The notes under the pieces are model-generated. The model made no database searches. It was not told the DNA's origin and saw only the letters and a program-made list of their open reading frames with translations. Source: Gammaproteobacteria bacterium (GTDB taxonomy: Bacteria > Pseudomonadota > Gammaproteobacteria > Eutrophobiales > Eutrophobiaceae). Taken from it: a DNA stretch of 64,000 nt. This document shows, piece after piece, positions 31,572 through 48,895 of this stretch; positions within the stretch are counted from its first letter, which is position 1; each line of letters begins with the position of its first letter. The position numbers were made by a program, and so were the translations under genes. Where the stretch lies: positions 1,952,001-2,016,000 of the forward strand of contig CBDCTH010000012.1 of the NCBI GenBank assembly GCA_965222155.1. Direction: 5' to 3'.

Positions 31572-32780
31572 ATGACACTTAGCATTGACCAACTCCCCAC
31601 CATTGATGTCACCGCAGCCTTTGCCTCCAGTGACGATTTTGATACTATTGTTATGTCGGCCCATGAACAGGGACCCTTCGCCCGTAGCGCTCGCGGGTTG
31701 GAAGTGCTGGGACATAAAGAATGTGTCAGCTTATTAAGGGATCGGCGCTTACATTCAGATCATATGGGCCTGGTGGAGGCCATGGGCTTTCCTGAAGGGC
31801 CGGCAAAGGAATTCAAAAAATGCATGTTATTAAGCCACGGCCGGGATGAATACCGCACGCGTATCCGCCAGGCACTGATACGAGCAATCGGCGCCTCTGT
31901 CATAGAAGAGCAACGCCCCATGATCCGGCAACTTGTCAAGGATCTCCTGCTGAAAATAGATCCGGACAAAGAAACCGATCTGCTGCACGATTTCGCTTTT
32001 TCGGTCCCGGCCAGCCTGTTTTGTCTTTGGTTTGGCGCACCGCTGAGTGATGCCCCCTGGATCGCCGACCTGTCTGATCGTATTCTAAAGATTTTCAGCA
32101 ATAATCCTGAATATACCCCCGGTATCATCGCTGCCTACGATGAATTGTTTCCCTACGTCCAAAACCTCATAGACAATGCAATGGAAGCACCGAAGGAAAA
32201 TCTCCTTGCCAATTTCATTGCCGAACATCAGGCTGGCCATTTCAATGAACAGGAGTTGTTCCACATTGTCTCCATGTTTAATGAGGCCAGTACCGACAAC
32301 ACCGCCCATGGTATCGCCACGGTCATCGGCCGGCTTACGAGTGATCAGCAACGTTGGCAACAGATCATTGATCATCCTGAATTGATTCCTGCTGCTGTTA
32401 ACGAATGTATCCGTTTGTCTGCCCGTATCAATACACTGATCCGCTACGCTTCAGAAGACCTGGAATACGGTGGAGTCCTGATCCCTGAGGGCACACCGGC
32501 CCATCATCTGATACCCGCGGCCCACCGGGACCCGAGGGTCTATACCGATCCATTACGCTACGATCCGACCCGGAAAGTTGTCCACCATCTGCTGGACTTT
32601 GGCGGCGGTATATACTCCTGTCTCGGTCAGTATGTAGCATTAATTGAGATCCAGGAAGCCGTTGCAGAACTGGTAAGCAGCTACTCCAATGCCCGATTAA
32701 AAAGCTTTAAGATAAACACCAATATGTTTGTCAGCGAAGTAAGCGAACTCAGAGTCGAGTTAAATGGGAGCGGAACATAA
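31572..32780 (+). CDS. Cytochrome P450
   Basis: ExxR (ECIR), AHRDP, heme ligand loop FGGGIYSCLG. Confidence 0.93.
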   Translation: MTLSIDQLPTIDVTAAFASSDDFDTIVMSAHEQGPFARSARGLEVLGHKECVSLLRDRRLHSDHMGLVEAMGFPEGPAKEFKKCMLLSHGRDEYRTRIRQALIRAIGASVIEEQRPMIRQLVKDLLLKIDPDKETDLLHDFAFSVPASLFCLWFGAPLSDAPWIADLSDRILKIFSNNPEYTPGIIAAYDELFPYVQNLIDNAMEAPKENLLANFIAEHQAGHFNEQELFHIVSMFNEASTDNTAHGIATVIGRLTSDQQRWQQIIDHPELIPAAVNECIRLSARINTLIRYASEDLEYGGVLIPEGTPAHHLIPAAHRDPRVYTDPLRYDPTRKVVHHLLDFGGGIYSCLGQYVALIEIQEAVAELVSSYSNARLKSFKINTNMFVSEVSELRVELNGSGT

Positions 32781-32794
32781 GACGGCTGTAGAAT

Positions 32795-32916
32795 GGGGTC
32801 AGGTCGCACAATGCACACTTGAGGCTCATTCTTTCAACGTTCGGCCCACTGCAGTTCTGCTGATTCCAAAATACACTGTCACTTCACCTATAGTGTGCAT
32901 TGTGCGACCTGACCCC
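32795..32916. mobile_element. Family C mini-element (RAYT 3'-end derivative)
   Basis: GGGGTCAGGTCGCACAATGCACA / TGTGCATTGTGCGACCTGACCCC ends; interior homologous to 33264-33366. Confidence 0.9.
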
Positions 32917-33263
32917 ATTCTATGCATTCTATGCAGGCTTTTTGAGGGGGAAATCTTTGTAATACGTCGCAATGGAATCCTTATTCATTTTGTTATTGTA
33001 CTGAACCTCGCGACACCCAGAAAAAACGACCGTAGCCTCACCAGCGCCAGTGTGTCGAGTTTGCAGTATAAGTCTTTAGGGTCGGGCCAGTAGAACACGT
33101 ACCAATATAAGACTTGACCTGTTGTTTGTAAGTGAATTGTCGGGAACCGTTAGCAAAAATATCTGACTCGGGTCAAATTTCCCTGTACTCGATTGTCTGA
33201 TTTGGTATCAAGTATCGTTTCTGCGGCTGTGTGATCAACCCCCTTCTCTTCGACATCTAAAAT

Positions 33264-34285
33264 GGGGTCAGGTCGCGCAATGCACACCTGAGATATCTTC
33301 TTTCAACGCTCGGCCCACTGTAGTTCTGCTGACTCCGAAATACTCCGCCACTTCAACCATAGTGTAATGCCCTGACCGATAGGCAGCAGCCATAGCACTT
33401 TGACGCGTCGTGAATGCTGATTCGTAGTAGTCAAGCGGTTTGGGTGGGGCCAGCGTTTGCAGCTTCGGTATATCCTTAGAAACCTTATCCGGTTCTATAT
33501 GATTCAACATTTCCTGCACAAAGGAATCCGAACCCAGGTAAATTTGATTTTTGAGATTCTCCCAGGGTGACGGTTGGTTTTGATCGGTGTTAACAAACTC
33601 CTGGTACTTCGATCTTGCACTGTCACACCTTTCCGAAAATTCGGCTAATACCCTGTCAATTGTTAAACAAGGTTCGGGGCGTGCCAGCCCTGCCGTGGCC
33701 CGGTAACTGCTCCAGGGCCATTCTTGAGCCTGTCTCACCATCCGGGCTCGAACCGGGTTTAAAACTATGTACCGTACCAGCTCTAAAAAATAGACGTCAC
33801 TCTCAACCAGAATTCCTTTGAACCGGCCCTGGAACAAGTGCCCTACTCTGGTATGACGTTTATTATAACGTTGCGTATAAACACCGTTGAGGAAGCGCAT
33901 TCCTTTTGACAAACCGGGCTGACCGATTTCTATGAGCAAGTGATAGTGGTTGGACATCAAGCAATACGCATGACACAACCAACCAAACCGCTTGCCTGCT
34001 TCACCTAGCAGCTTAAGAAATTGATAACGGTCAAAATCATCTGAAAATATATCAGCACGTGCGTTACCGCGGGAGGTGATGTGGTAGAGTGCCCCTGCAA
34101 ATTCTATTCGGAGAGGTCTTGCCATAAGTTCATCCTTGAAAGCTACTTTAGATAAAATCTCTGTTACGGAATGCTGACTTATTCCGAGGTTAGCTGAAAT
34201 CCTACCATTAGTCTACCTGCTTTTCAAATAAATCAGGCTAATCTGGAACCTGTTACGAGCGATGTGCATTGTGCGACCTGACCCC
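33264..34285. mobile_element. RAYT unit bounded by 23-bp inverted family C ends
   Basis: GGGGTCAGGTCGCGCAATGCACA at 33264 and TGTGCATTGTGCGACCTGACCCC ending 34285 (1 mismatch). Confidence 0.85.
33268..34125 (-). CDS. REP-associated tyrosine transposase (HUH Y1) with C-terminal HTH
   Basis: MARPLR..YHITSRGN, HUH motif NHYH, GHLFQGRF, YIVLNPVRA, WPWSSY; stop codon lies inside the terminal repeat. Confidence 0.93.
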   Translation of the reverse strand: MARPLRIEFAGALYHITSRGNARADIFSDDFDRYQFLKLLGEAGKRFGWLCHAYCLMSNHYHLLIEIGQPGLSKGMRFLNGVYTQRYNKRHTRVGHLFQGRFKGILVESDVYFLELVRYIVLNPVRARMVRQAQEWPWSSYRATAGLARPEPCLTIDRVLAEFSERCDSARSKYQEFVNTDQNQPSPWENLKNQIYLGSDSFVQEMLNHIEPDKVSKDIPKLQTLAPPKPLDYYESAFTTRQSAMAAAYRSGHYTMVEVAEYFGVSRTTVGRALKEDISGVHCAT

Positions 34286-34467
34286 ATCACACACAAACAG
34301 ACCGTGATCGTGAACGCAAAGAAAAACTCCGGCGGCGACCAGCCAAGGTCGGCCGTAACAGGACCAACGAAGAATCCTTGTGAGTAATTGGTTATTGTGA
34401 GCAAGCCGCACATCATGCCTACCGTTGCGGCCAGCAACGGTCCCCAGCCTTTCTTGAATTCGTTCAT
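34286..34467 (-). pseudogene. Truncated MFS transporter (first ~60 codons only)
   Basis: MNEFKKGWGPLLAATVGMMCG..SQGFFVGPVTADLGWS is an MFS-like N-terminus that stops at the family C end at 34285. Confidence 0.75.
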
Positions 34468-34557
34468 GCTATTTCCCCACGATACTGCAAAGTTTCAATA
34501 AAACTCCGCCAGTGGTGCTGGTTCTTTAGAATGGGGTCATTTAGAATGCAGTAGAAT

Positions 34558-34676
34558 GGGGTCAGGTCGCACAATGCACACTTGAGGCTCATTCTTTCGA
34601 TGTTCGGCCCAATGTAGTTCTGCTGGTTCCAAAATACACTGTCACTTCGGCTATGTGCATTGTGCGACCTGACCCC
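34558..34676. mobile_element. Family C mini-element
   Basis: Same ends and RAYT-derived interior; stuttered junctions on both sides. Confidence 0.9.
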
Positions 34677-35215
34677 GTTGACCTGACCCCGTTGACCTCG
34701 CATTGTTCAGCGACGCAATACGTATGCTATAGCGTGCCCATGAGCCCCAGAATCCCAAGCCGTTGATGCCGGTATTTCAATGCAAGCGAACCGATAAGTG
34801 GCGCAGTAAAAAGCCCCAAACAGCCTTTCTTGAATTCGCATGCTATTTCCCCAATATCGTGCGACGTTTCAGGAAACGACTGCGTCGGTGTGAGTTCTTG
34901 GTTAATTCGAATGGCAGCGGCACGTCATGCCTAAATGAGTGCAATCCAGCAACGGTCCCCAGCCTTTCTTGACCGTAACGTGCTGGCTGTAGTTGATGAA
35001 GATCGCTGAATCCTTGTGAGTAATTGGTTATTGTGAGCAAGCCGCACATCATGCCTACCGTTGCGGCCAGCAACCGACGTTTCAGGAAACGACTGCGTCG
35101 GTGATGCCGGTTCTTGGTTTAATTCGAATGGCAGCGGCACGTGACAGGTAAATGAGTGTCAATCCGGACAAGGTAGCCCAGGGGTCAGACCGTAACGTGC
35201 TGGCTGTAGTTGATG

Positions 35216-35240
35216 AAGGCTGCCGCTTATGCGGCGGCTT
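35216..35240 (-). terminator. Putative terminator hairpin downstream of the TonB-dependent receptor
   Basis: Minus strand AAGCCGCCGCATAAGCGGCAGCCTT; U-tract is weak. Confidence 0.45.
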
Positions 35241-35260
35241 CACCCTGACTTCAAATGATT

Positions 35261-37927
35261 TTAGTTATATCGGTAATTAAAGGATAAACCGATTGTCCGT
35301 GGACGCAAAGAGAAAAAGTATTGATGCACACCTCCGGCGGCGGCTGCGGTATTTCCGGCAGATATATTTTGTTCATTCCCTATATTGCGCACAAACAGTG
35401 ATGCAGTCCAGTTCTCATTGGATTCCAATGCTATTGACGCATTAAACACTGCATAGGAATCAATTTCGAAGAAATCTCGTCCAAAATTTATATTTTGACT
35501 GAATGTCGATTGTGTGTCGCTGGCGTATTTTCCGTCCACATGGTAGGCAAGCGACCAGTTATTCATTTTAAGTGGTTGCAGATAATCAAGAGCGAATGTA
35601 AATGTATGGTCAGGCACACTCGGCAATGGATCACCATCTGAAACTGTAATAAGGGGGAGTACTGTGAAAGGTGGTATAAAAAAGGACCCCGTCGTTCCGG
35701 CGACATAGTCTGATATGACGAAATCCTTTGTGACCTCCGCATCGACGTATGAATATCCAATATTATATGTCAGGCCTTCACCCATGTTTCCATTCAGTTC
35801 CAGCTCAATACCTTTTGTTTCGGCTTCTTCTCCATTTAGCACAACCTTAAATCCCGCTATTACCAAAGATTCAAACTGAAATTGATCCCATTCAACAAGA
35901 TAGGCCGCTATTGAATAGTTTATATTCTCCGAGAGAGATCCTTTCAAACCTATTTCCCAATTGGTAGTCGAATCCGGTTGAAACTGGAGCAATGATGGCA
36001 AAGAGGCCTGGCGACCACCTTGTGGAAGCGCATTGGCACCGCCATGGCGGAACCCTTCGGCCCAGGTAAAATAAGCCATCATATCGTCGTTGATATTATA
36101 TGACGTGTTGACCTTGAAAATCTGATCTTCAAATTCCCGCTTTGCATCAGTAACGGTCGTACCACCTTCGAAAAACCGAGGCTGCTCGGCGCTTGAACAA
36201 AAAAGACCGCAAAAGGGTATTAATGTTTCAAAGTCGTGGGAAAATTCCTGCCAAAATGCTCGTATACCACCGGTAATCTGCCATTGGTCGCTTACGTGCC
36301 AGGTTAACTCGCCAAAGACAGCAATATCTTCAAATTTAAAAAGTCTGTCTTCTGTAAAGGTGACATCCGGTAAATTAGCGTTGTTTCTGCCGCGGGGAAA
36401 TCCAATGTTTGCTACATTGATGGTCGTATCAAATTCACTTAAACCCGGTTGCGTGGTAGTAGTCAGGCCGACCGATTCCCTGTCTTCATAATAAGCACCG
36501 ATAACGTAGTCAATCTTGTTATCTCCATTTGACGTGAGTCGAATTTCCTGTGTAAACCGCTCGGTTTCGTCAAAGGAAGATGTGACACCGGCAGCTCGTG
36601 GATAAAATGAATTAAATGTTGCCACACTTGAACCCCCCGGTGCCCTGGTAGGTAAATCAAAGCCGGTAAAATCAGGGGTATTAAAATAGCTGACTTCCGA
36701 ATAGGAAGTCGAAGATGAAATTGAAGCAATACCAACATCGATATTCACTTCAGCACTGAAAATGTCAGCCTTGCTTGCGCCGGCTGATTTGAGGAACATG
36801 GTGTGATCATAGTCACTGGCATCAGGAATCGTTACGCCACTGTTCGCGTAAAGCGTATTCCCACCTGCTCCAAGACAAGGCTGATTTGGGGTAAAAAAAT
36901 CTGCAGAGAATGCGACGCCTCCATTACAGGCATTTGCGTTGGAAAAGAATGAACCAGGAAAATTAGCGAGACTGGCGTCAACCAGACCCCCGTCAAAGCC
37001 GGGGTTAACCCCGGAAAAATCATCTACTTCACTCTTCTGGTTGAGGTAAGTCAACTGGACATCGACCGTATCTGTCGGCGCCCAATGCAGGTTGGCGCGA
37101 ATCATATGTGATTGAAGATCATTGGTATCCTCTTCCGGAGCCAGTACATATCCGCTCGCAAGGTCACCAGCTACACTTGGAACAGGCTCACCGCTACTAT
37201 CACGTTGTACAAGACCGATTCCGTCCACAAAGCCACCTAAATCATCCCAGCTCCCGACAATCCTTAAGGCCAGGGTATCTTCCACCAGGGGAACATTGAC
37301 CGCGATGTCACCGCCATAACCAAGCTCATCAGATTCCCACATCGAATCAAGATGGGTATTGACGTCCAGCGAAAACCCTTCAAAGTCGGCTGCTTTCGGT
37401 ATGAAGCGGATTGTCCCACCTAGCGAACCGGAACCGTATAATGTTCCCTGTGGGCCACGCAAAACTTCCACCCGTTCAATATCCTTCATAACCAGAGGAA
37501 AAAATAATGGAGTTTCGCCGAAATACATTGAAACTGCACCAGAACTGACATCGGTACCAAAGATGAGCCTGGAATCATTGGCATTAATGCCACGGAGAAT
37601 AAAAGTATTTCGACTTGAACGTAATGATCCGCCTTGATCCTTAAAATTGAGCCCTGGTACGAGGCGAGCGACGTCACCTATATCGAACGCTCGTGCGGTT
37701 TTCATATACTCATCTGAATATGCTGAAATATTATAGGGAATATCCTGAATACTCTGCTCTCTACGCTGTGCAGTGACTGTTATTTCTTCAAGCGGTGCTT
37801 GCGCCAACGCCGGAGATGAAAAAACACTGACCGTACATGCAACCATTACAGCAGCAGCGAAAGACTTTATTGGCGCGTTCTGAGAGGAGTTTATATTCTT
37901 GGTCCCCCGTTTCAGTTTCTTTTTCAC
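35261..37927 (-). CDS. TonB-dependent receptor
   Basis: Signal peptide, TonB box LEEITVTAQRR, plug motif IERVEVLRGPQGTLYG, C-terminal PRTIGLSFNYRY. Confidence 0.95.
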   Translation of the reverse strand: MKKKLKRGTKNINSSQNAPIKSFAAAVMVACTVSVFSSPALAQAPLEEITVTAQRREQSIQDIPYNISAYSDEYMKTARAFDIGDVARLVPGLNFKDQGGSLRSSRNTFILRGINANDSRLIFGTDVSSGAVSMYFGETPLFFPLVMKDIERVEVLRGPQGTLYGSGSLGGTIRFIPKAADFEGFSLDVNTHLDSMWESDELGYGGDIAVNVPLVEDTLALRIVGSWDDLGGFVDGIGLVQRDSSGEPVPSVAGDLASGYVLAPEEDTNDLQSHMIRANLHWAPTDTVDVQLTYLNQKSEVDDFSGVNPGFDGGLVDASLANFPGSFFSNANACNGGVAFSADFFTPNQPCLGAGGNTLYANSGVTIPDASDYDHTMFLKSAGASKADIFSAEVNIDVGIASISSSTSYSEVSYFNTPDFTGFDLPTRAPGGSSVATFNSFYPRAAGVTSSFDETERFTQEIRLTSNGDNKIDYVIGAYYEDRESVGLTTTTQPGLSEFDTTINVANIGFPRGRNNANLPDVTFTEDRLFKFEDIAVFGELTWHVSDQWQITGGIRAFWQEFSHDFETLIPFCGLFCSSAEQPRFFEGGTTVTDAKREFEDQIFKVNTSYNINDDMMAYFTWAEGFRHGGANALPQGGRQASLPSLLQFQPDSTTNWEIGLKGSLSENINYSIAAYLVEWDQFQFESLVIAGFKVVLNGEEAETKGIELELNGNMGEGLTYNIGYSYVDAEVTKDFVISDYVAGTTGSFFIPPFTVLPLITVSDGDPLPSVPDHTFTFALDYLQPLKMNNWSLAYHVDGKYASDTQSTFSQNINFGRDFFEIDSYAVFNASIALESNENWTASLFVRNIGNEQNISAGNTAAAAGGVHQYFFSLRPRTIGLSFNYRYN

Positions 37928-37970
37928 GATATTTTCCCCAGTTCGAAATCAATAATTTTGACAGTATTAA

Positions 37971-38351
37971 CCCGGATTTCTCACCAGGCCGCTTGTTGCT
38001 ATCGGAGACATGTTTTCTGTCAATGAGTGATGGAAACCTTTTCACTATATCGACATTACAGACTGCGCTTGATACGCCATTGCTTGTCTTTTTTGCGCCA
38101 GTGGGCACGTGTTCATTGCGCCCATCCCCCTGCTCAACTCCATACAGAGCTTACCCCTGCGGTTGTAAGCAGGGGGGCAGGCTCTGGGCGCAACCCTGCG
38201 GGCGGCTGTCGCCGTGCAAATCGTCTGTCCTGACGATTTGTCCCTCAACCAGAGCATAAGGGGACGGATTTGAAATCCGTCCCCGGAGAGTTCAGGCGCC
38301 CGCTGGCGCAAAAAATCCAGTGCAATCATCGTATCACCTGAGAAATCCGGG
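37971..38351. mobile_element. MITE family B with TTAA duplication and several nested inserts
   Basis: TTAA-CCCGGATTTCTCA ... TGAGAAATCCGGG-TTAA; inserts at 38112-38240 and 38260-38284. Confidence 0.9.
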
Positions 38352-38391
38352 TTAAAAGCTATATTGGATATAGTTTATTTAAGTCTTGGAC

Positions 38392-38428
38392 ACCAATAGC
38401 TTTTGCTTTGATTGTCATGGGAAATAGT
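38392..38428 (-). promoter_or_regulatory. Shared upstream motif WTTTCSCAT-N19-ATTRGT facing the TonB-dependent receptor
   Basis: Minus strand ACTATTTCCCAT-N19-ATTGGT; same spacing at 41047 and 43987. Confidence 0.6.
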
Positions 38429-38484
38429 TGCGCAACTGACTTTAGATGTTAAGCTTTTGACTTTAAAAGGTAAAAACGGCTCAA

Positions 38485-39372
38485 ATGATGGACCCCGATT
38501 GGTTGCCATTTCACCCTGCGCCCAGTTCGCCTGAATTTGTGCTGCCTGATGGGGCGGTCGATGCACACTGTCACGTATTTGGCCCCGCAGCAGAGTTTCC
38601 TTTTGCGCCAGAGAGAAAATACACCCCCTGCGATGCGAGCAAAGGCAATTTATGGCAATTGCGTGATCATCTTGGTTTCTCACGCAATGTGATTGTGCAG
38701 GCCACTTGCCATGGCGCCGACAATCATGCACTGGCGGATGCCCTGCAATCCTCCCACGGCAAGGCTCGAGGTATCGCCACGCTGCGATCGACTGTAACCG
38801 GTGACGAATTGGCACAATTGCATGCAGCCGGCGTACGCGGTGTACGCTTCAATTTTGTACAGCGCCTGGTGGATAGTTTGCCCTTTGGCGAATTGGCCGG
38901 TATTGCAGAGCGAATCGTACCTTTGGGTTGGCACGTCGTCATCTATTTTGAGGCAGCAGACCTGGCAGAGTATTACGATTTCTTCACATCTTTGCCTACC
39001 ACGGTGGTGGTAGATCATATGGGTCGCCCCGATGTCAGCCAACCGGTCAACGGCACAGGGTTTAATCTCTTTATCAAACTGTTGACCGAGAATGAGAATT
39101 TCTGGTCGAAGGTCAGTTGTCCGGAGCGGATTTCAGAAGTTGGTCCGCCAGGATATGAAGATGTCATCCCCTTCGCCCAGCGTGTGATCGACGCTTTTCC
39201 AGACCGTGTGTTATGGGGAACCGACTGGCCTCACCCCAATATGAAGTCTCACATGCCGGACGATGGTAAATTGGTAGACTTGATACCTCATATTGCCCTC
39301 ACAGAAAAACTACAACAAAAACTGCTGGTAGATAACCCCATGCGCCTGTATTGGCCGGAAGAAATCAGCTGA
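38485..39372 (+). CDS. ligI: 2-pyrone-4,6-dicarboxylate hydrolase
   Basis: DAHCHVFGP, RKYTPCDA, VQATCHG, DHMGRPD, WGTDWPHPN. Confidence 0.93.
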   Translation: MMDPDWLPFHPAPSSPEFVLPDGAVDAHCHVFGPAAEFPFAPERKYTPCDASKGNLWQLRDHLGFSRNVIVQATCHGADNHALADALQSSHGKARGIATLRSTVTGDELAQLHAAGVRGVRFNFVQRLVDSLPFGELAGIAERIVPLGWHVVIYFEAADLAEYYDFFTSLPTTVVVDHMGRPDVSQPVNGTGFNLFIKLLTENENFWSKVSCPERISEVGPPGYEDVIPFAQRVIDAFPDRVLWGTDWPHPNMKSHMPDDGKLVDLIPHIALTEKLQQKLLVDNPMRLYWPEEIS

Positions 39373-39388
39373 TGATATTGCAAGTGAT

Positions 39389-39428
39389 GGGGTCAGGTCA
39401 CACATTGTGCAATGTGCGACCTGACCCC
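39389..39428. repeat. Family C minimal doublet (two ends, no interior)
   Basis: GGGGTCAGGTCACACATTGTGCAATGTGCGACCTGACCCC, flanked by GTGAT/ATCAC. Confidence 0.85.
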
Positions 39429-39440
39429 ATCACTCCAGGA

Positions 39441-39597
39441 CTCTGGTTGAGGGAGCACGTGCCCGCCAGCGCAAAAAAGACAAGTGAGAGCGCATTCAGC
39501 GCTGTTTGCACCGACGACGATAGTAATAAACTGCGAATAACTCATTGACATCACGGAACTTTCCATCTATGACAAGCGAACTGGCGCAATATCCGGG
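39441..39597. mobile_element. Truncated MITE family B (one end missing)
   Basis: CTCTGGTTGAGGGAGCACGTGCCC ... CTGGCGCAATATCCGGG-TTAA; other half absent next to the family C doublet. Confidence 0.8.
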
Positions 39598-39630
39598 TTA
39601 AGGCGCTTTTGGCAATGAACTTGTCGCCTG

Positions 39631-40899: not shown

Positions 40900-40960
40900 T
40901 TTTCAGTACGATAGCAGTTTTTTTACAATTATTCATGACAGGAAACAGGCATGTTGCTTT

Positions 40961-41011
40961 GGGGACGGACTTAAGCATGCCCCCGTATGTTGTCAGCGGG
41001 GGTCCGTCCCC
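40961..41011. repeat. GGGGACGGA..TCCGTCCCC palindrome with AAGCATG-CCCCCG..CGGGGG mini-insert
   Basis: Direct inspection; insert-free versions at 38260, 55813 and 62516. Confidence 0.8.
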
Positions 41012-41046
41012 GGATAGACCAGGGGCATGGTGAGCATGGCCGGATT

Positions 41047-41083
41047 ACTTTTTCGCATGGTTGGGAAATTAATTCCCATTGGT
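41047..41083 (+). promoter_or_regulatory. Shared upstream motif before ligU
   Basis: ACTTTTTCGCAT-N19-ATTGGT, with TACGCT 18 nt after TTGGTT. Confidence 0.62.
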
Positions 41084-41135
41084 TAGCTGACCGGATTATA
41101 AATACGCTGGTATCACATAAATTGGAAGCACGAAC

Positions 41136-42224
41136 GTGAAACAGTTAGCGATACCGTATATGCAGATGCGCGGGGGGAGTTCGAAAGGTTTGTATTTCCT
41201 TTCTGAAGATTTACCCACGGACCCGGCACAGCGTAACGAAGTACTGCTTGATGCTATGGGTCGAGGTGAGCGTCAGATAGACGGTCTGGGCGGCGCCGAT
41301 CCCCTGACCAGCAAGGTGGCGATTGTTAGCCGTTCTTCCCGGCCGGACGCAGATATCGACTTCTTATTCGTACAAATAGTGGTAGGTCAGGACAAAGTCG
41401 ATACTATACCAAACTGTGGAAACATACTGGCGGGCGTTGGGCCCTTTGCCATAGAGACTGGCCTGGTGCCGGCAGATGAACAGACAACCCGACTTACTGT
41501 GCATATGGTCAACAGCGGAATATTGAGCGAGTTGGAACTGTCTACTCCCGGCGGCAAAACGGAGTACGAGGGCGAGGCTCAAATTGATGGCGTGCCAGGC
41601 AGTGCGGCGCCAGTGCTTTGCTCCTATAAGGATTTGTCCGGCTCAATCTGTGGTGAGCTCCTGCCCACCGGCCGGGTACTGGACGTTGTAGATGATGTGG
41701 AAATGACCTGCGTTGACAATGGCATGCCTGTAGTGGTTTTGCGGGCAAAAGATTTCGGCATCAGTGGCTATGAGTCACCGCTTGAACTGAACGCGAATGA
41801 GAATTTAAAGGCGAGACTGGAGTCGATTCGACTTCAAATTGGCCCCGATATGAACCTGGATGACGTGAAAAACAAGACCATTCCGAAGATGTGCCTTGTA
41901 TCGCCGGCTGTAAATGGAGGACTGGTCAACACACGAACGTTCATTCCTCATAAATGTCATGCGGCTGTCGGGGTGTTGGGGGCGGTGTCGGCAGCTAGCG
42001 CTTGCATATTACCTGGATCGGTCGTAGAGGGAATGGTCGAACGGCCGGGAGGCGAAGTCAAAACTATATCAGTGGAACACCCCATTGGAGAGTTTTCTGT
42101 AACTCTGCAAGTGGATGAATCCGGTGAATTTCCGCTAATCAAAAAAGCGGGTTTGCTGCGCACTGCGCGCCTGCTGAGCAGGGGTGTATTGTATGTTCCC
42201 GCCAGAGGGGAAAGTAAGTTATGA
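41136..42224 (+). CDS. ligU: 4-oxalomesaconate tautomerase/isomerase (LigU/GalD/FldA, PrpF family)
   Basis: [45 protein letters not shown]. Confidence 0.9.
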
Positions 42225-42919
42225 GGACGGTAGCAGTTCGAAACATTGAACGAGCAGATGCAGCGGTCGTGGAGGTACTGGGAACTTTGGGCGTTGCCAC
42301 GGTACATGAAGCGCTGGGACGGGTGGGGCTGTTAAAACCCTATATGCGACCGATATACCGACACGCCCGGATCGCAGGCAGTGCCATTACGATTTTGGCC
42401 CAGCCTGGTGATAACTGGATGTTACATGTGGCCATCGAACTTTGCCAACCCGGGGATGTCCTCGTGGTAGCTTGCACCACGGACAATACCGACGGAATGT
42501 TTGGTGATTTATTGGCCACTTCGGCCCGGGTTCGGGGTGTAAAAGGCCTTGTGGTAGATGCCGGCGTACGCGATGTGGCAATACTGGAAGATATGAGTTT
42601 CCCCGTTTGGTGCAAAGCGGTATCCGCTCAGGGTACGGTTAAAAACACGCCTGGTTCGGTAAACGTACCCATTGTCTGTGCCGGCCAGACAGTCAATCCC
42701 GGTGATGTAGTAGTTGCTGATGATGACGGTGTAGTAGTGATTCCGAGACACCGGGCCGAAGCTGCTATGGCTGCTGCCCGGACTCGGGAACAAAATGAGG
42801 CGAGCAAGCGTGAAAAACTGGCAAACGGCATTTTAGGTCTGGATATGTATGACATGCGCCCTCGCCTGGAAAAAGCGGGCCTGATTTACCTGGATTCACT
42901 GGAAGATTTAAAAGACTGA
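42221..42919 (+). CDS. ligK: 4-carboxy-4-hydroxy-2-oxoadipate aldolase
   Basis: [40 protein letters not shown]. Confidence 0.93.
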
Positions 42920-42921
42920 TC

Positions 42922-43968
42922 ATGATTATTGATTGCCACGGGCACTACACCACGGCACCGGGTGCGCTGGGCGAATACCGTGAGCGACAAAAAGCGGAAC
43001 TGACTGATGAACCAAACTTTCAACATGAAAAAGGTATCATTGATATCAGCGATGAGCAGTTGCGGGAGAGTCTTGAAGGAGCACAATTAAAACTGCAACG
43101 GGAACGCGGTACCGATCTCACTATATTTTCACCGCGCGCCAGCTGGATGGGGCATCATATCGGCAATGAGAGCACCAGTAAATTCTGGTCTGAGCACTGT
43201 AATGAGTTAATCTACCGCATCACACAGCTATATCCGGATAACTTCGCCGGAGGTTGCCAGTTGCCCCAGACACCGGGGGCAGAACTACGTAATGCCGTCC
43301 TGGAACTGGAGCGTTGTGTGCTTGAGTTCGGTTTTGTCGGGTTTAACCTGAATCCGGACCCATCGGGCGGCCACTGGGACTCCCCTCCCCTGGGAGATCG
43401 CTATTGGTATCCTGTCTACGAAAAAATGTGCGAACTGGATGTCCCCGCCATGATCCATGTGAGTGGGGCTTGTAATCATGCCTTTCAAACCACCGGTTCC
43501 TATTACCTGAGTGCCGACACTACTGCCTTCATGCAGTTGATGACATCGACTGTGTGCCAGGATTTTCCGGATATCAGGTTCATAATCCCCCATGGTGGCG
43601 GTGCAGTGCCTTATCACTGGGGGCGTTTCCGCGGTCTGGCTGACATGATGAAGCTGCCTCCCCTCGATGAATTGTTGTTGAACAATGTCTACTTTGACAC
43701 CTGTGTTTATCACCAGCCCGGGATTGATTTGTTAGTGGATGTGATCCCCTCCAAAAATATTTTGTTTGCATCAGAAATGATAGGTGCAGTACGCGGCATA
43801 GACCCCGAAACCGGCCATTATTTCGATGATACCAAACGTTACATCGATAACAACAATGCACTCAGCAAAGACGAAAAAAAGGCCATTTTTGAGGGCAATG
43901 CCCGTAGGGTATTTACCCGATTGAACAAATCAAATTCGAATACGGCACGCATCGTGAAGGCAGGATAA
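42922..43968 (+). CDS. ligJ: 4-oxalomesaconate hydratase
   Basis: MIIDCHGHYTTAP, FSPRAS, IPHGGGAVPYHWGR, FASEMIGAVRG. Confidence 0.95.
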   Translation: MIIDCHGHYTTAPGALGEYRERQKAELTDEPNFQHEKGIIDISDEQLRESLEGAQLKLQRERGTDLTIFSPRASWMGHHIGNESTSKFWSEHCNELIYRITQLYPDNFAGGCQLPQTPGAELRNAVLELERCVLEFGFVGFNLNPDPSGGHWDSPPLGDRYWYPVYEKMCELDVPAMIHVSGACNHAFQTTGSYYLSADTTAFMQLMTSTVCQDFPDIRFIIPHGGGAVPYHWGRFRGLADMMKLPPLDELLLNNVYFDTCVYHQPGIDLLVDVIPSKNILFASEMIGAVRGIDPETGHYFDDTKRYIDNNNALSKDEKKAIFEGNARRVFTRLNKSNSNTARIVKAG

Positions 43969-43986
43969 CTCACCAGGATTACAAAT

Positions 43987-44023
43987 GACTTTTCCCATAG
44001 CTTTAAAAATAAAATTCATTAGT
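43987..44023 (+). promoter_or_regulatory. Shared upstream motif before the pobA-like gene
   Basis: GACTTTTCCCAT-N19-ATTAGT, with TATGTT 18 nt after TTAGTA. Confidence 0.6.
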
Positions 44024-44054
44024 ATCAATATTAAGCTGCTTTTATGTTAGCTTA

Positions 44055-44260
44055 CAGGGCAAACGCATACTTTTGGATTCTGTTGCAGAAGACAGGAAAT
44101 CAACCGGAAAACGCCGCCCGTCATGCTGGCGAATGCCAGCATCCAGTCAAACAACAGCGCATGATCATGGTGATGAAGGGTTATTCACTGGATTCTGGCT
44201 TGCGCCAGAATGACGGAATCGGGTAAAAACGTCTGAATTCAAAAGTATGCGTTTGCCCTG
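44055..44260. mobile_element. MITE with 26-bp TIR and perfect 10-bp target duplication
   Basis: TGTTAGCTTA-CAGGGCAAACGCATACTTTTGGATTC ... GAATTCAAAAGTATGCGTTTGCCCTG-TGTTAGCTTA; contains a GTCAT-type palindrome pair at 44118-44216. Confidence 0.92.
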
Positions 44261-44298
44261 TGTTAGCTTAAGTCTACAACCCGCTTTTCAGGAAAATG

Positions 44299-44366
44299 CA
44301 GAGTAAAAATACGACCAATCTGGCAGACTGTGTTGCTGTACTGTCAGGTATTTTTACTCTGACCCC
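44299..44366. repeat. REP-like doublet CAGAGTAAAAATAC...GTATTTTTACTCTGACCCC
   Basis: 14-bp inverted repeat; right arm recurs at 62565-62583. Confidence 0.65.
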
Positions 44367-44402
44367 AAGTGTCGAGGGTTTGTCAATTCAGGAGACAACA
44401 CA

Positions 44403-45587
44403 ATGCATGTACCAGTCGTGATAGTTGGTGCGGGCCCGTCCGGTTCGCTCTTGGCCTGGATTTTACGCCAGCGCGGGATCGAAAGTATCGTCCTGGAAAG
44501 GAAAAGCCGTGAATACGTCGAAAGTCGCATTCGTGCCGGTGTCATGGAGCAAAACGCTGTAGACTTGATGATTAAAGCAGGTGTCGGCGAACGCCTGAAA
44601 AAGGAATGCATGTATCACCCAGGTGTGGTCATCGGCCTTCACAATGAGCATCATTTTCTCGATTTCGATAGGCTGATAGGGGTTGGTGTCACCATATACG
44701 GCCAGTCGGAGCTTACCAAGGATCTATTGGGCGCACTTGCAGCGGTAGATCACAAGGTTTTCTATGAGGCGCCCGCCACGGCAATCGAAGGCATTGAGGG
44801 TGATTCCCCGACGGTGAAGTACACTCACGAGGGCGTGGATAAGGAAATAAGCTGCGATTTCGTTGTCGGGGCCGATGGTTTTCATGGTCCCTCACGTTCG
44901 TCGATCCCGGCCGGCGTCCTCAAGACTTACGAAAACGTTTATCCCTACGGTTGGCTCGGTGTGATGGTCAAAGCGCCGCCGTCGAAAGATGTAGCAATGT
45001 TTTCGCATCATGAACGTGGCTTTGCACTGTTGAGCATGCGTTCACCGAAAATTTCGCGGCTCTATCTCCAGTGCGCGCCGGATGAAGATATCAACGAATG
45101 GCCCGATGAGCGGGTCTGGGAAGAACTCGATACGCGCCTGGGTGCACCCGGTTGGGAGCTTGAGCGAGGGGAGATCTTTCAGAAGGATGTGACCCCACTG
45201 CGGAGTTTTTTCTCCCAACCCATGTCCCATGGTCGTCTGTTTCTGTGCGGTGATGCCGCGCACATCGTCCCGCCGACCGGCGCCAAGGGCCTTAACGCGG
45301 CATTTGCCGATGTGAGCGTTCTGTCCGCCGGATTGATCGAATACTTTACAAAAGACAACGCTACGATTTTAGATCGTTATGCCCACGTTGCCCTGGCCCG
45401 CAACCTCCAGTGTCAGCGTTTTTCCTCGGGCAACACGGCCAAGTATCATATCCACCCCGACAGCAATTCCTTCGAACGCCGTATGCAAGTGGCGGAGTTG
45501 GAATATCTGGTGTCTGACGAGACGACCCAGATATCCTATGCCAGGCAACATACCGGGCTTCCGTTCGATTACTGGCCGGAACTCTGA
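44403..45587 (+). CDS. pobA: 4-hydroxybenzoate 3-hydroxylase-like flavin monooxygenase with divergent active site
   Basis: GAGPSG, RIRAGV, YGQSE, GADGFHG, GDAAHIVPPTGAKGLN; family is clear, substrate is not. Confidence 0.8.
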   Translation: MHVPVVIVGAGPSGSLLAWILRQRGIESIVLERKSREYVESRIRAGVMEQNAVDLMIKAGVGERLKKECMYHPGVVIGLHNEHHFLDFDRLIGVGVTIYGQSELTKDLLGALAAVDHKVFYEAPATAIEGIEGDSPTVKYTHEGVDKEISCDFVVGADGFHGPSRSSIPAGVLKTYENVYPYGWLGVMVKAPPSKDVAMFSHHERGFALLSMRSPKISRLYLQCAPDEDINEWPDERVWEELDTRLGAPGWELERGEIFQKDVTPLRSFFSQPMSHGRLFLCGDAAHIVPPTGAKGLNAAFADVSVLSAGLIEYFTKDNATILDRYAHVALARNLQCQRFSSGNTAKYHIHPDSNSFERRMQVAELEYLVSDETTQISYARQHTGLPFDYWPEL

Positions 45588-45612
45588 ATGCGAACCCCTT
45601 CCCGGACACTGA

Positions 45613-45848
45613 CCCGGATTTCTCACCAGGCCGCTTGTTGCTATTGAATACTTTGCTAACAATAAATTACGGTAATATGTCCATTATATCAACAGAACAG
45701 GCTGCGCTTGATGCGCCCTTGCTTGTCTTTTTTACGCCTACGGGCACATGCTCCCTCAACCAGAGCTATGGCTATGCTTTCGGTCGCAGGCACCCGTAGG
45801 CGTAAAAAATCCGGCGCAATCATCGCATCACCCGGTGAGAAATCCGGG
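45613..45848. mobile_element. MITE family B (no insert)
   Basis: CCCGGATTTCTCACC ... GGTGAGAAATCCGGG. Confidence 0.9.
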
Positions 45849-45933
45849 TTGATCACCTGTGCCGATATGCGAGTTTTGCACAGTCTGACGGGGTCCGCGT
45901 CCCTTCAACTTTTCAGGAATAAGGAAGAGAAAC

Positions 45934-46302
45934 ATGAGTAGAGAAACTGGTCACAGTGATAATATTCCAGGCACATGTGTGTTCACCGGGCAAAGGTCGC
46001 AGAAGGGGCTAAAGCTGAATAGCTTTGCCTATTCTCTTCACAAAGCCGGGAACCGGGAGGTCTATCGTCAGGATCCGGCGGGCTACATGGATAGCTACGG
46101 TCTTTCAGCCTGGGAGAAACAAAAGGTTAAAGAGAAGGACTGGAAGGCCCTGATCGAAGAAGGCGGCGGCAACATCTATATGCTGTTGAAAGTCGGCGCT
46201 ATTACCGGTGATGGTCTTGTCCCCATCGGTGCGCAGCAGCGAGGCGAATCGGTGGAAGATTTCATGAAGTCCCGCAACGTGCCATTGCGGCAAAATATGT
46301 AG
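45934..46302 (+). CDS. ligA: Protocatechuate/gallate 4,5-dioxygenase alpha subunit
   Basis: IPGTCVF..KGLKLN.F..L, GGNIYMLLK; directly before ligB. Confidence 0.85.
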   Translation: MSRETGHSDNIPGTCVFTGQRSQKGLKLNSFAYSLHKAGNREVYRQDPAGYMDSYGLSAWEKQKVKEKDWKALIEEGGGNIYMLLKVGAITGDGLVPIGAQQRGESVEDFMKSRNVPLRQNM

Positions 46303-46329
46303 CAGCAAAACAAATAGTGGAGCAATAAA

Positions 46330-47187
46330 ATGGGTAGACTAGTTGCCGGTATCGGTTCGTCTCACGTTCCTTCGATTGGCGTGGCTTTCGATCAAAACCA
46401 GCAGGAGGCTCCTGGGTGGAAGCCCCTGTTTGATGGTTATAGGCCTGCTAAAGCCTGGTTAAAGGATGTCGGTATAACTCACGCCGTCGTTCTGTACAAC
46501 GATCATGGCACCGATTTTTTTTTCGATAAGTATCCGACATTCGCGATGGGTGTTGCCGATGAATACCCTATCGGTGATGAAGGTTGGGGCGTACGTCCGC
46601 TGCCGGCGGTAAAGGGTGATAGTGTTTTTTCCTGGCACCTGGCTAACTCTCTGGTGAAAGAGAGTGAATTCGATCTTACCATTTGTCAGGACATGGTGAT
46701 GGACCACGGCATCCTGGTACCATTGCCGTTATTGTTTGATCATAAGCCTGACTGGAGTGTCAAGACTGTGCCTATGCAGGTCAATGTGCTGCAGCATCCG
46801 TTACCGACACCGCACCGGTTATGGAAACTTGGACAAGCACTGCGAACAGCCGTTGAGTCCTATCCCGATGATGTGCGTGTTGTTGTTGTTGGCACTGGTG
46901 GACTTTCTCACCAGTTGCATGGCGATCGTTTCGGTCATATGAACTCGGACTGGGACAAGGAATTTCTTGACCGGATCGAAGATGATCCGGAAAGCCTCGT
47001 CGATATCTCTCATGATGAATTGATGGAACGTGGTGGGGCGGAAGCGGTGGAGATGATGGTGTGGCTTGGGATGCGTGGCGCCTTAACCCCGAAGGTCAAC
47101 AAGATCCACCGGAATTACTACCTGCCGATGTTATCAGGGATGGGATTGACCGTTCTGGAGGATACGCTGACAGGCGATGCAACCTGA
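46330..47187 (+). CDS. ligB: Protocatechuate/gallate 4,5-dioxygenase beta subunit
   Basis: SHVPSIG, YNDHG, DEGWG, DHG, GTGGLSHQL, GAEAVE..W. Confidence 0.92.
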   Translation: MGRLVAGIGSSHVPSIGVAFDQNQQEAPGWKPLFDGYRPAKAWLKDVGITHAVVLYNDHGTDFFFDKYPTFAMGVADEYPIGDEGWGVRPLPAVKGDSVFSWHLANSLVKESEFDLTICQDMVMDHGILVPLPLLFDHKPDWSVKTVPMQVNVLQHPLPTPHRLWKLGQALRTAVESYPDDVRVVVVGTGGLSHQLHGDRFGHMNSDWDKEFLDRIEDDPESLVDISHDELMERGGAEAVEMMVWLGMRGALTPKVNKIHRNYYLPMLSGMGLTVLEDTLTGDAT

Positions 47188-47205
47188 ATCCGGAAATGCG
47201 GAAAT

Positions 47206-47305
47206 GGGGTCAGGTCGCACAATGCACACTTGAGGCTCACCCTTTCAACGTTCGGTCCACTGTACTGTCACTTCAGCTATAGTGTGCATTGTGCGACCTG
47301 ACCCC
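47206..47305. mobile_element. Family C mini-element (100 bp)
   Basis: Same ends; identical to 47709-47808. Confidence 0.9.
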
Positions 47306-47698
47306 GCATCCGTTACCGACACCGCACCGTTATGGAAACTTGGACAAGCATTGCGAACAGCCGTAGAGTCCTATCCCGAAGAGGTGCGTGTCGTTGTTGT
47401 GGGCACCGGCGGGCTTTCTCACCAGCTGCATGGCGATCGTTTCGGCCATATGAACGCGGACTGGGACAAGGAATTTCTTGACCGGATCGAAGATGATCCG
47501 GAAAGCCTTGTCGACATCTCTCATGATGAATTGATGGAACGTGGTGGTGCGGAAGCGGTGGAGATGATGGTGTGGCTTGGGATGCGTGGCGCCTTAACCC
47601 CGAAGGTCAACAAGATCCACCGGAATTACTACCTGCCGATGTTATCAGGGATGGGATTGACCGTTCTGGAAGATACGCTGACAGGCGATGCAACCTGA
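47306..47698 (+). pseudogene. Duplicated 3' half of ligB (divergent allele)
   Basis: Aligns to 46794-47187 with a 1-nt deletion and ~16 substitutions. Confidence 0.9.
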
Positions 47699-47708
47699 AT
47701 CCGGAAAT

Positions 47709-47808
47709 GGGGTCAGGTCGCACAATGCACACTTGAGGCTCACCCTTTCAACGTTCGGTCCACTGTACTGTCACTTCAGCTATAGTGTGCATTGTGCGAC
47801 CTGACCCC
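47709..47808. mobile_element. Family C mini-element (100 bp)
   Basis: Identical to 47206-47305. Confidence 0.9.
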
Positions 47809-47833
47809 GCATACACGCATACAGGGGAATTAC

Positions 47834-48895
47834 ATGACCACAGAGAAAACAAATGGTAGGTTTATCAAAGAAGAGACCTGGCGTCACTTTTGGCATCCTG
47901 TCTGTACACTGGAGGAATTGTATTCAGCGGACCCCTCCGGTAATGGTCCGCTCCAGGTGCAGTTACTGGGTGAGGCCCTGGTTATAGCAAAACTGGACGG
48001 GAGTATTTCCGCGTTCGCCGATCGATGTGCGCATCGTTCAACATCCTTGTCCAGGGGATTCATAGATGATGGCAGAATACGCTGCCGTTATCATGGCTGG
48101 GCCTATGACAGTAGCGGAAAATGTGTCGACATTCCTGCGTGCCGGGATTTAAAAATACCCGGTCGTGCGAAGATTCAAAAATTTGATGCTGAAGTAAAAT
48201 ACGACCTCGTATGGGTTAGTCTTGAAGCCCATGCAGCCACAGAAATCCCTCCCTGTCCCGGATTTGATGATGAAGTGTTTAAGGCAGTTATCGGCAAACC
48301 CTATACCTGGGCAACCTCCGCGGCAAGGCGGTTGGAAAATTTTGTCGATTTGGCTCATTTCCCCTATGTTCATCCAAATACACTGTTTGATCCAAACATG
48401 ACAGATGTATCACCCCCATCAATCGATCGTAATAATGGTCAATTGATCTTTCATTTCAACCCTCAAACTGATGATATGCCCATCCCGGATGTGTCTTTAA
48501 TGGGAAAAACGGATTATCAGATTACTATGCCGTTTACTGTCAACCTGGAATTTGAACTCATCAGCAAAGCCGGGAAAGGTAATCGGGCCATATTATGGAT
48601 GAGTGCATCACCCCTTGACGAGGGTCATTGCCGCAGTTTCTGGTTTACCTGTCGTGATCACAACAAAGATGAACCCGATTATCCTCATCTTGCATTTCAG
48701 GAACGTGTACTGGAAGAAGATATTGTGGTGATCGAAGCACAGAATCCGCCCCAGATTCCTTATGGCATCGATGAAATTTCAGTGCCGACTGATATGGTAT
48801 CCATCCAGTACCGGAGGTGGCTACGTGAAATCGAACAAGCTGTTGATAACGATAGCTTATTGAAAAATCTTACTACCAATGAAAGATGCGCATAG
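47834..48895 (+). CDS. Rieske non-heme iron oxygenase, NdmA/NdmB-like demethylase family
   Basis: Rieske CAH...CRYH; iron site ENFVDLAHFPYVH...ED; start MTTEK (ATG 47834) with GGGG RBS. Confidence 0.88.
   Translation: MTTEKTNGRFIKEETWRHFWHPVCTLEELYSADPSGNGPLQVQLLGEALVIAKLDGSISAFADRCAHRSTSLSRGFIDDGRIRCRYHGWAYDSSGKCVDIPACRDLKIPGRAKIQKFDAEVKYDLVWVSLEAHAATEIPPCPGFDDEVFKAVIGKPYTWATSAARRLENFVDLAHFPYVHPNTLFDPNMTDVSPPSIDRNNGQLIFHFNPQTDDMPIPDVSLMGKTDYQITMPFTVNLEFELISKAGKGNRAILWMSASPLDEGHCRSFWFTCRDHNKDEPDYPHLAFQERVLEEDIVVIEAQNPPQIPYGIDEISVPTDMVSIQYRRWLREIEQAVDNDSLLKNLTTNERCA

Follow-up and report, generated by a model that had tools for sequence, protein, structure and literature searches.

PobA is a textbook flavoenzyme whose homologues are automatically annotated as 4-hydroxybenzoate 3-monooxygenase. 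The ordinary enzyme (p-hydroxybenzoate hydroxylase, PHBH) activates 4-hydroxybenzoate via Tyr201 and Tyr385, while the natural protocatechuate (PCA) hydroxylases described in PMC10770758 have lost both tyrosines and carry a smaller residue at position 199. These 'clade F' proteins (XaPobA, OtPobA and PkPobA; structures 8jqo-8jqq), presented by Katsuki et al. as the first natural protocatechuate 5-hydroxylases and as enzymes of unknown physiological role, have Val or Ile/Trp/Met/Phe in place of Leu199/Tyr201/Leu210/Tyr385, which provides a pocket for the extra 3-hydroxyl group; they are reported from Burkholderiales, and a text search of the paper found no discussion of gene context (PMC10770758). 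A PobA-type gene linked to a PCA 4,5-type dioxygenase is described for Pigmentiphaga kullae H8, whose phbh-pcaA-pcaB operons, according to PMC12016517, degrade 3-bromo-4-hydroxybenzoate via 3-bromo-4,5-dihydroxybenzoate and respond to 3-bromo-4-hydroxybenzoate, not to 4-hydroxybenzoate. The first of its clusters, bhb1, consists of phbh1-pcaA-pcaB-orf404 with the LysR regulator BhbR1, and the second, bhb2, of phbh2-pcaB2-pcaA2 with the MarR regulator BhbR2 (PMC12016517). Here we analyse a 64-kb stretch of DNA from a Gammaproteobacteria bacterium (the window), in which a PobA-like gene is followed by homologues of ligA and ligB (together, the triad) within a core cluster at 35261-48895. On balance we favour, with cautious confidence, the view that this cluster encodes a LigC-independent route for 4-hydroxybenzoates already bearing a substituent X at C3.

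The genes of the core cluster are the following:

35261-37927, minus strand: TonB-dependent outer-membrane receptor (Pfam Plug and TonB_dep_Rec_b-barrel)
38485-39372, plus strand: LigI, 2-pyrone-4,6-dicarboxylate (PDC) hydrolase (346 bits to SYK-6 LigI 4d8l; Pfam Amidohydro_2)
39631-40899, minus strand: LysR-type regulator (Pfam HTH_1 in two stretches and LysR_substrate)
41136-42224, plus strand: LigU, 4-oxalomesaconate (OMA) tautomerase (NF033377, 499.6 bits, above the cut-off of 440)
42221-42919, plus strand: LigK, 4-carboxy-4-hydroxy-2-oxoadipate aldolase (TIGR02798, 368 bits, above the cut-off of 304.5)
42922-43968, plus strand: LigJ, OMA hydratase (501 bits to 6dxq/6dwv)
44403-45587, plus strand: PobA-like FAD monooxygenase (Pfam FAD_binding_3, 238.9 bits; member of a clade with Ala199/Phe201/His385)
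45934-46302, plus strand: LigA-like small (alpha) subunit, 122 aa (Pfam LigA, 86.3 bits)
46330-47187, plus strand: LigB-like catalytic (beta) subunit, 285 aa (NF009902, 424 bits, above the cut-off of 299)
47834-48895, plus strand: NdmA/NdmB-like Rieske monooxygenase (Pfam Rieske and VanA_C)

The bhb clusters of strain H8 are the closest published gene arrangement. They share with the window, and with all 14 related loci discussed below, a PobA-type gene beside both PCA 4,5-type dioxygenase subunit genes. With the window they also share, in one of the two clusters, a LysR regulator, as well as a 3-substituted 4-hydroxybenzoate as substrate and a 5-substituted protocatechuate as intermediate, both of which are only proposed for the window. 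Strain H8 belongs to the Betaproteobacteria, and its clusters, compared here by their description only, are described without ligI, ligU, ligJ or ligK and without a TonB receptor or Rieske gene (PMC12016517).

Several known lower pathways do without LigC. The syringate branch of Sphingobium sp. SYK-6 and Novosphingobium aromaticivorans, in which 3-O-methylgallate is cleaved by LigAB/DesZ/LigAB2 to 4-carboxy-2-hydroxy-6-methoxy-6-oxohexa-2,4-dienoate (CHMOD) and PDC, followed by LigI, LigU, LigJ and LigK, resembles the window in its LigC-independent lower pathway, in these four enzymes and in a two-subunit LigAB-type dioxygenase; it differs in that 3-O-methylgallate arises there by tetrahydrofolate-dependent demethylation of syringate, with no ring hydroxylation, and in that ligC comes after ligB in SYK-6. 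The gallate cluster of Pseudomonas putida KT2440 (GalA, GalB, GalC, GalD, GalR, GalT, GalP) likewise has a LysR regulator and the OMA tautomerase, hydratase and aldolase steps, but GalA is one fused polypeptide where the window has two genes, and the gal cluster has neither LigI nor a hydroxylase. The syringate pathway of Pseudomonas sp. NGC7 (VanA1B1, MgaAB, MgaC, MgaD and GalD/B/C) has in common with the window a Rieske demethylase gene in an operon with a two-subunit GalA-related dioxygenase, and no LigC; it is described without LigI and without a PobA-like gene, PDC is not converted, and the alpha/beta hydrolase MgaC acts instead (PMC12314914).

The PobA-like protein has the group A flavoprotein monooxygenase fold and passes the subfamily model NF006091 (494.7 bits versus a cut-off of 351), but it fails the 4-hydroxybenzoate 3-monooxygenase equivalog TIGR02360 (450.8 bits, below the cut-off of 538.7). 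Its closest solved protein is the protocatechuate hydroxylase XaPobA (8jqq, 379 bits), with Pseudomonas PHBH at 357 bits. In the alignment with PHBH 1pbe, Leu199, Tyr201 and Tyr385 are exchanged for Ala, Phe and His, respectively. The Pro293-Thr294 loop and the residues that bind the carboxylate (Ser212, Arg214 and Tyr222) are retained. The preliminary description rightly called the PobA of this cluster altered. Among the 120 nearest database proteins 103 have Ala199 and Phe201, and all 98 of these that span column 385 have His there; the remaining 17 are Leu/Tyr/Tyr, and identity to the window protein falls from 59% to 53% at this split. Ser212, Arg214 and Tyr222 are kept across the clade members that span these columns, save for one Ser212Asn (P0007). 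The named clade members among these 120 proteins are all annotated as 4-hydroxybenzoate 3-monooxygenase.

The Ala/Phe/His clade forms a single long branch with 100% SH-like local support, and its signature is found in none of 76 full-length representatives of the wider PobA family. Clade-F proteins (Trp201/Phe385) were sought among the 150 best representatives in order to place the window clade, and none was present. Both groups share the fold, the loss of both tyrosines, a residue smaller than Leu at position 199 and the conserved Ser212/Arg214/Tyr222; they differ in that the window clade combines Ala199/Phe201/Leu210/His385 with His72, and clade F Val(Ile)199/Trp201/Met210/Phe385 with Met72 (PMC10770758). 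From these residue patterns the window clade looks like a different solution to the same-looking problem, that of accepting a 4-hydroxybenzoate with a group at C3, and we propose that the PobA-like protein is a 5-hydroxylase of 3-substituted 4-hydroxybenzoates.

The dioxygenase is encoded by two adjacent genes. Its LigA-like subunit scores below the LigA equivalogs (TIGR02792, 78.4 bits versus a cut-off of 108.6; NF009918, 84.1 versus 161), and the only model that the LigB-like subunit passes is the generic NF009902 ('class III extradiol dioxygenase family'); the model for the fused gallate dioxygenase GalA/DesB (NF009904) gives 343.5 bits, below its cut-off of 412. The catalytic subunit is slightly closer to the gallate dioxygenase DesB (3wku, 284 bits) than to SYK-6 LigB (1b4u, 258 bits), and the alignment shows that it keeps the iron ligands and both catalytic histidines (His12, Asn57, His59, His124, His192 and Glu239 in DesB numbering). 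Phe103 of SYK-6 LigA aligns with Leu in 15 of 15 sequences (alignment to 1b4u_A, with only moderate posterior support at this position). The alpha-subunit Phe103 is described as touching the C5 substituent, changes at position 103 as raising gallate and 3-O-methylgallate turnover, and F103V/T/L/H as the kinetically active variants, in PMC10094722. Glu377' of DesB, which according to PMC3962378 binds OH-5 of gallate and so enforces strict gallate specificity, corresponds in the sequence alignment to Leu in the window and to Leu or Ile across the clade. With Leu at position 103 and Leu or Ile at the Glu377' column, the enzyme looks like a LigAB opened towards C5 substituents rather than a DesB-type gallate specialist. 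Two-subunit relatives known or proposed to prefer C5-substituted substrates are LigAB2 of N. aromaticivorans (PMC8091115), MgaAB of Pseudomonas NGC7 (PMC12314914) and XAC0878/9 of Xanthomonas citri (PMC11393088).

A scan of species-representative genomes with the PobA-like protein gave 45 loci, 15 of which encode proteins 67-96% identical to it. Eight of these are uncultured 'Gammaproteobacteria bacterium' records (L001-L008), the closest relatives of the window; the others come from the Roseobacteraceae (Ruegeria arenilitoris, Leisingera and Shimia), one member of the Hyphomicrobiales, two Rhodospirillaceae and a Magnetovibrio fragment. One clade locus ends inside the PobA-like gene, leaving 14 with a downstream flank, and homologues of neighbouring genes were accepted at E 1e-10 with half of the query covered within a flank of 10 kb. 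All 15 clade members carry the Ala/Phe/His signature, and none of the 30 other PobA loci does. Linkage follows the same divide: the PobA-like gene is followed by LigA and LigB homologues in 14 of 14 loci, while neither LigA nor LigB occurs within 10 kb of PobA proteins that are at most 50% identical (0 of 30 loci). The flanks vary with lineage, the alphaproteobacterial loci having tripartite ATP-independent periplasmic (TRAP) transporters and the gammaproteobacterial loci a TonB receptor, a major facilitator superfamily (MFS) transporter and a Rieske gene, and linkage of the triad is therefore not just the common ancestry of one island. Between the PobA-like gene and ligA about 1 kb intervenes in the loci L012 and L015, with an open reading frame (ORF) of 329 or 326 aa, respectively; searches of Pfam, NCBIfam and Atlas gave no lead for this ORF, which is therefore possibly not a real gene.

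The Ruegeria operon reads short-chain dehydrogenase/reductase (SDR), PIG-L-family protein, ligK, ligU, ligI, an ORF without known family, a double SnoaL protein, a radical-SAM-like ORF, PobA-like gene, ligA and ligB. Its PIG-L-family protein stands where a KT2440-type GalB would be, and GalB is a member of the PIG-L family. The Roseobacter loci further encode an SDR of the coniferyl-alcohol-dehydrogenase type (NF009092, 307 bits versus a cut-off of 242), an aldehyde dehydrogenase and a SnoaL-like protein, a gene context that leans to guaiacyl compounds. A SnoaL-like protein is also found in strain NGC7, where MgaD is assigned to the 3-O-methylgallate route in PMC12314914.

From the observed gene content, synteny and residue patterns we infer all substrates and products of the route that we favour. 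The substrate would be taken up through the TonB-dependent receptor, which probably serves this purpose; relatives possess an MFS transporter as well, which the window has lost. The PobA-like flavoprotein would then hydroxylate the 3-X-4-hydroxybenzoate at C5 to give a 5-substituted protocatechuate, and the LigAB-like extradiol dioxygenase would cleave the ring beside X. Cleavage by LigAB-type enzymes yields CHMOD/PDC from 3-O-methylgallate and OMA from gallate (PMC8091115; PMC12314914). With a leaving group as X, either methoxy (vanillate as substrate and 3-O-methylgallate as intermediate) or bromide or chloride, the cleavage product would close to PDC and LigI would open PDC to OMA. PDC would form by way of CHMOD in the methoxy case and, in the halogen case, with release of halide, as PCA 4,5-dioxygenase reportedly does with 5-halo-protocatechuate (Kersten, Chapman and Dagley, 1985); where X is hydroxyl (protocatechuate to gallate), OMA would be formed directly. 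LigU, LigJ and LigK would carry OMA on to pyruvate and oxaloacetate. As no semialdehyde would be formed by these steps, LigC would not be needed.

The most likely order of substrates within this route is vanillate/3-O-methylgallate first, a 3-halo-4-hydroxybenzoate next and protocatechuate/gallate third. Both the window and 10 of the 14 related loci contain ligI, and because it is kept beside the triad in both bacterial classes PDC appears to be a real intermediate, which favours a leaving group over OH as X. In its most specific form the proposal would make the PobA-like protein a vanillate 5-hydroxylase, converting vanillate to 3-O-methylgallate, with LigAB-like cleavage and the methoxy group leaving as methanol upon PDC formation. 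We put this version forward tentatively and consider it rather unlikely; the literature searched yielded no bacterial vanillate 5-hydroxylase. The extra ring hydroxylation ahead of a LigC-independent cleavage, which the preliminary description had suggested, is itself favoured by the comparative evidence of a tyrosine-less clade that is always found beside LigAB, with the substrates deduced only.

The absence of ligC on which this suggestion rested is borne out. A scan of the 51 large window ORFs and of 13 small intergenic ORFs of the cluster (64 ORFs together) found no Gfo/Idh/MocA domain, which is typical of LigC, nor does Pfam detect it in any of the 100 ORFs of the 14 related loci, i.e. 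in any syntenic cluster visible. The SDR of the Roseobacter loci was considered as a LigC substitute and discarded, having matched the coniferyl-alcohol dehydrogenase model instead.

Other observations weigh against the route as we propose it, and most of them bear on this step. The window covers 64 kb, and ligC may lie elsewhere in the genome. Complete ligABCIJK/galD sets that are non-syntenic are reported for SAR116 in a preprint (10.64898/2026.07.17.739263), which places the SAR116 LigB as sister to Gammaproteobacteria; they are a warning that ligC can be unlinked in genomes of this kind. Further, five of the eight closest relatives (L002-L006) have a 276-aa dehydrogenase (NAD_binding_2 and DUF1932) translationally coupled to ligI. 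It is encoded between the TonB receptor gene and ligI, in L002 at 3770-4600 with its stop codon overlapping the ligI ATG. L001 and L008 have lost it but for the last ~35-55 nt before ligI, and the window is without even these; in the window the loss is marked by a short junction:

38477-38482, no strand: dehydrogenase-loss junction (window 38354-38476 corresponds to L002 3502-3624, and 38483-38516 to L002 4595-4628)

No remnants of the dehydrogenase or of ligC were found in the intergenic ORFs of the window. The protein tree of the dehydrogenase is a polytomy and the polarity of the loss is taken from the DNA: the 3' remnants in L001 and L008 argue that the gene is ancestral in the group and was lost more than once. 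Since oxidation of 4-carboxy-2-hydroxymuconate-6-semialdehyde (CHMS) to PDC is the sole redox step in the known lower pathways, this dehydrogenase is a candidate non-orthologous LigC, and if it does act as one, the ancestral cluster could be that of an ordinary protocatechuate pathway. Its repeated loss with all else kept would then mean that the protocatechuate branch is dispensable or, alternatively, that ligC lies elsewhere.

A conversion of CHMS to PDC by a dehydrogenase unlike LigC (the DUF1932 protein of the relatives), or by a LigC encoded elsewhere, with the window having lost or displaced the gene, is accordingly a rival explanation, which we consider unlikely. Besides the coupling to ligI and the remnants before it, this explanation draws on the conservation of ligI itself, as PDC is the product of the LigC step, on the scattered yet complete sets of SAR116 and on the catalytic residues of the LigB-like protein, which are those of PCA 4,5-dioxygenase. 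The moderate support of the LigA Phe103 column also weighs against our proposal, as does the Leu or Ile opposite Glu377' of DesB, which speaks against an enzyme as strictly confined to gallate as DesB is. PHBH activity is moreover compatible with the loss of the tyrosines, because the clade-F enzyme OtPobA retains sizeable activity on 4-hydroxybenzoate (PMC10770758), a point that also favours the rival. On the other hand, a dehydrogenase that replaces LigC leaves the invariant replacement of Leu199, Tyr201 and Tyr385 and of LigA Phe103 unexplained. The 276-aa protein is absent from all six alphaproteobacterial loci and was lost in three gammaproteobacterial genomes with the other genes all intact. 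Its family is also uncharacterised: 498 matches at E <=1e-10 bear generic names only, there is no named relative among the best 120 of them, and the solved relatives are without assigned function.

A different account of the missing gene had been that ligC was deleted at repeats, the 'family C elements', right after ligB. The 'family C elements' are inverted repeats of the repetitive extragenic palindromic (REP) type, at 47199-47312 and 47702-47813, around a duplicate of the ligB 3' end. This region and the other repeats and gene debris near the cluster are as follows:

47199-47813, no strand: REP, tandem duplicate of the ligB 3' end and second REP (repeat families D2, D3 and D17; inverted pairs I8 and I20)
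32789-32922, 33258-33287, 34263-34287, 34552-34680, 39387-39433, 47199-47312 and 47702-47813, no strand: REP copies (repeat search)
33268-34125, minus strand: REP-associated tyrosine transposase, RAYT (NF047646, 71 bits with a cut-off of 80; Pfam Y1_Tnp)
34294-35073, minus strand: MFS transporter scraps (tblastn with the 428-aa MFS protein of L008)

The REP family consists of inverted pairs of a 25-nt core, with at least 6 copies within 16 kb. The ligB duplicate is a pseudogene fragment (ORF 47282-47698), a copy of the last ~400 nt of the gene with 95% identity over 300 nt to 46818-47117, and window segments 47306-48905 and 45849-47309 each map onto L001 12150-12669. In L001 one REP copy separates ligB from the Rieske gene, and in L002, L004 and L008 the two genes lie ~20-35 nt apart with neither REP nor duplicate. 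The repeats after ligB are thus a late REP insertion followed by a tandem duplication of ~510 bp. Because ligB runs into the Rieske gene in the repeat-free relatives, there was never room for ligC at this place, and its deletion there has to be rejected.

Changes of this kind raise the question whether the cluster is eroding in the window genome and may no longer work as a pathway. The window has lost the ligI-coupled dehydrogenase and, apart from scraps, the MFS transporter, and compared with its relatives it has gained intergenic insertions at 37971-38353, 44054-44349 and 45607-45848 in addition to the REP and tandem duplication between ligB and the Rieske gene. We nevertheless regard such decay as very improbable, since the nine enzyme and regulator genes are all full-length and 88-99% identical to the copies of the relatives, the insertions are exclusively intergenic and the TonB receptor is intact. 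A homologue of this receptor (87-98% identity) occupies the same place in L001, L002, L004, L006, where the locus end cuts it, L007 and L008.

The MFS gene is long in L001, L002, L004, L007 and L008, where it adjoins the TonB receptor gene. What remains of it in the window are residues 1-58 at 34467-34294 (95% identity) and short repeated pieces at 34736-34867, 34920-34970 and 35008-35073. The debris spans 34294-35218 and includes a 67-nt stretch that occurs twice with 100% identity (34372-34438 and 35008-35074), a pattern suggestive of local duplications within a defunct gene. Related direct and inverted copies of a second insertion family lie at 37970-38353, 45607-45848 and 39441-39517, at sites that are empty in L001, L002, L004 and L008, and the insertion at 44054-44349 carries its own 27-nt inverted repeat.

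Family and solved-structure matches confirm that the genes listed in the preliminary description are present as intact ORFs, with LigI, LigU, LigK and LigJ firmly identified. The regulator, which had been named GalR/LigR-like, is of the LysR type; its best NCBIfam model is PcaQ (229 bits, below the cut-off of 303.8). Transcribed divergently from the neighbouring lig genes, it is 422 aa long with two tandem HTH_1 domains that are 31% identical to each other. The protein is kept at 93-99% in L001-L006 and L008, and since the extension is present in all seven relatives the long form does not result from a mis-called start.

Among solved Rieske enzymes, the N-demethylases NdmB (6icl, 308 bits) and NdmA (6icp, 304 bits) match the Rieske protein far better than any other. 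Its start is most likely the ATG at 47834, which lies behind a Shine–Dalgarno-like AGGGGA; the TTG at 47792 given previously falls inside a REP element. All eight gammaproteobacterial relatives have the gene after ligB and none of six alphaproteobacterial loci does, which makes it an accessory of the triad in the gammaproteobacterial lineage. The enzyme is probably a demethylase of a precursor. No reductase gene was found near it, and in this, as in its NdmA/B-like character, it differs from the Rieske demethylase of strain NGC7 (PMC12314914).

The cytochrome P450 gene that had been counted with the set is a neighbour only:

31572-32780, plus strand: cytochrome P450 (Pfam p450; best solved relative 3p3l, 162 bits, among generic relatives only)

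It is parted from the cluster by the RAYT gene, which is bracketed by inverted REP copies at 33258-33287 and 34263-34287, by further REP copies and by the destroyed MFS gene, and only in L008 does a P450 3' end lie upstream of the MFS and TonB genes. Membership of the P450 in the pathway is therefore not supported. The 109-aa ORF that follows it has no family match. A cytochrome c' gene and a gene for a 307-aa c-type cytochrome lie just 5' of the P450 gene (30041-31424, plus strand). On the 3' side of the cluster, the minus strand at 48924-54658 encodes a 424-aa protein without known family, a LolA-like/DUF1329 protein, an MMPL/RND transporter and an MpaB-family oxygenase; the LolA-like gene matches at L001 15127-16395 as three separate pieces and may be broken there. 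The remaining genes of the window are housekeeping genes (dnaE, lpx genes, bamA, tsf, ileS etc.).

Some of the related loci show further features of their own. At L007 5912-18456 the triad and the Rieske gene adjoin MFS and TonB receptor genes without any of the lig lower-pathway genes, and a large DNA methylase gene and a Mutator-family transposase come next, which suggests that the triad can move as a module. Two IS240-type DDE transposase fragments lie right after ligB in the R. arenilitoris locus (L016 13245-13964). About 7 kb upstream of the triad, the Rhodospirillaceae locus L012 (506-3627) encodes an MttB-family methyltransferase, a B12-binding protein and an SDR, which could form a corrinoid-dependent demethylation system. 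Upstream of the dehydrogenase, L005 (1-3722) has a second, distant LigA/LigB-like pair with 26% identity to the LigB of the window, adjoined by an isochorismatase-family gene and a large amidohydrolase.

Taken as a whole, the observations first made on this cluster are confirmed and their interpretation holds in part: a hydroxylation that makes LigC unnecessary is favoured, the claims of novelty, of a role for the P450 and of a deletion at the repeats are not, and the lost dehydrogenase clouds the picture. To speak of an undescribed funnel was too strong, as protocatechuate 5-hydroxylases (PMC10770758) and operons of PHBH with PCA 4,5-dioxygenase (PMC12016517) are published. The route is thus not wholly undescribed, the bhb clusters of Pigmentiphaga and the clade-F protocatechuate hydroxylases being close analogues.

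If the proposed route is true, about a hundred sequence clusters would be annotated with the wrong function, and the natural protocatechuate hydroxylases, so far puzzling, would gain a physiological role. The PDC/oxalomesaconate pathway would also gain an entry that needs no demethylase or that removes a halogen. Should the vanillate version hold, guaiacyl lignin units would be mineralised without any O-demethylase and without LigC, by a route common to the Roseobacter group, Rhodospirillaceae, Hyphomicrobiales and uncultured gammaproteobacterial lineages. This would be of relevance to the carbon turnover of lignin-derived or halogenated phenolics and to the engineering of PDC or gallate production.

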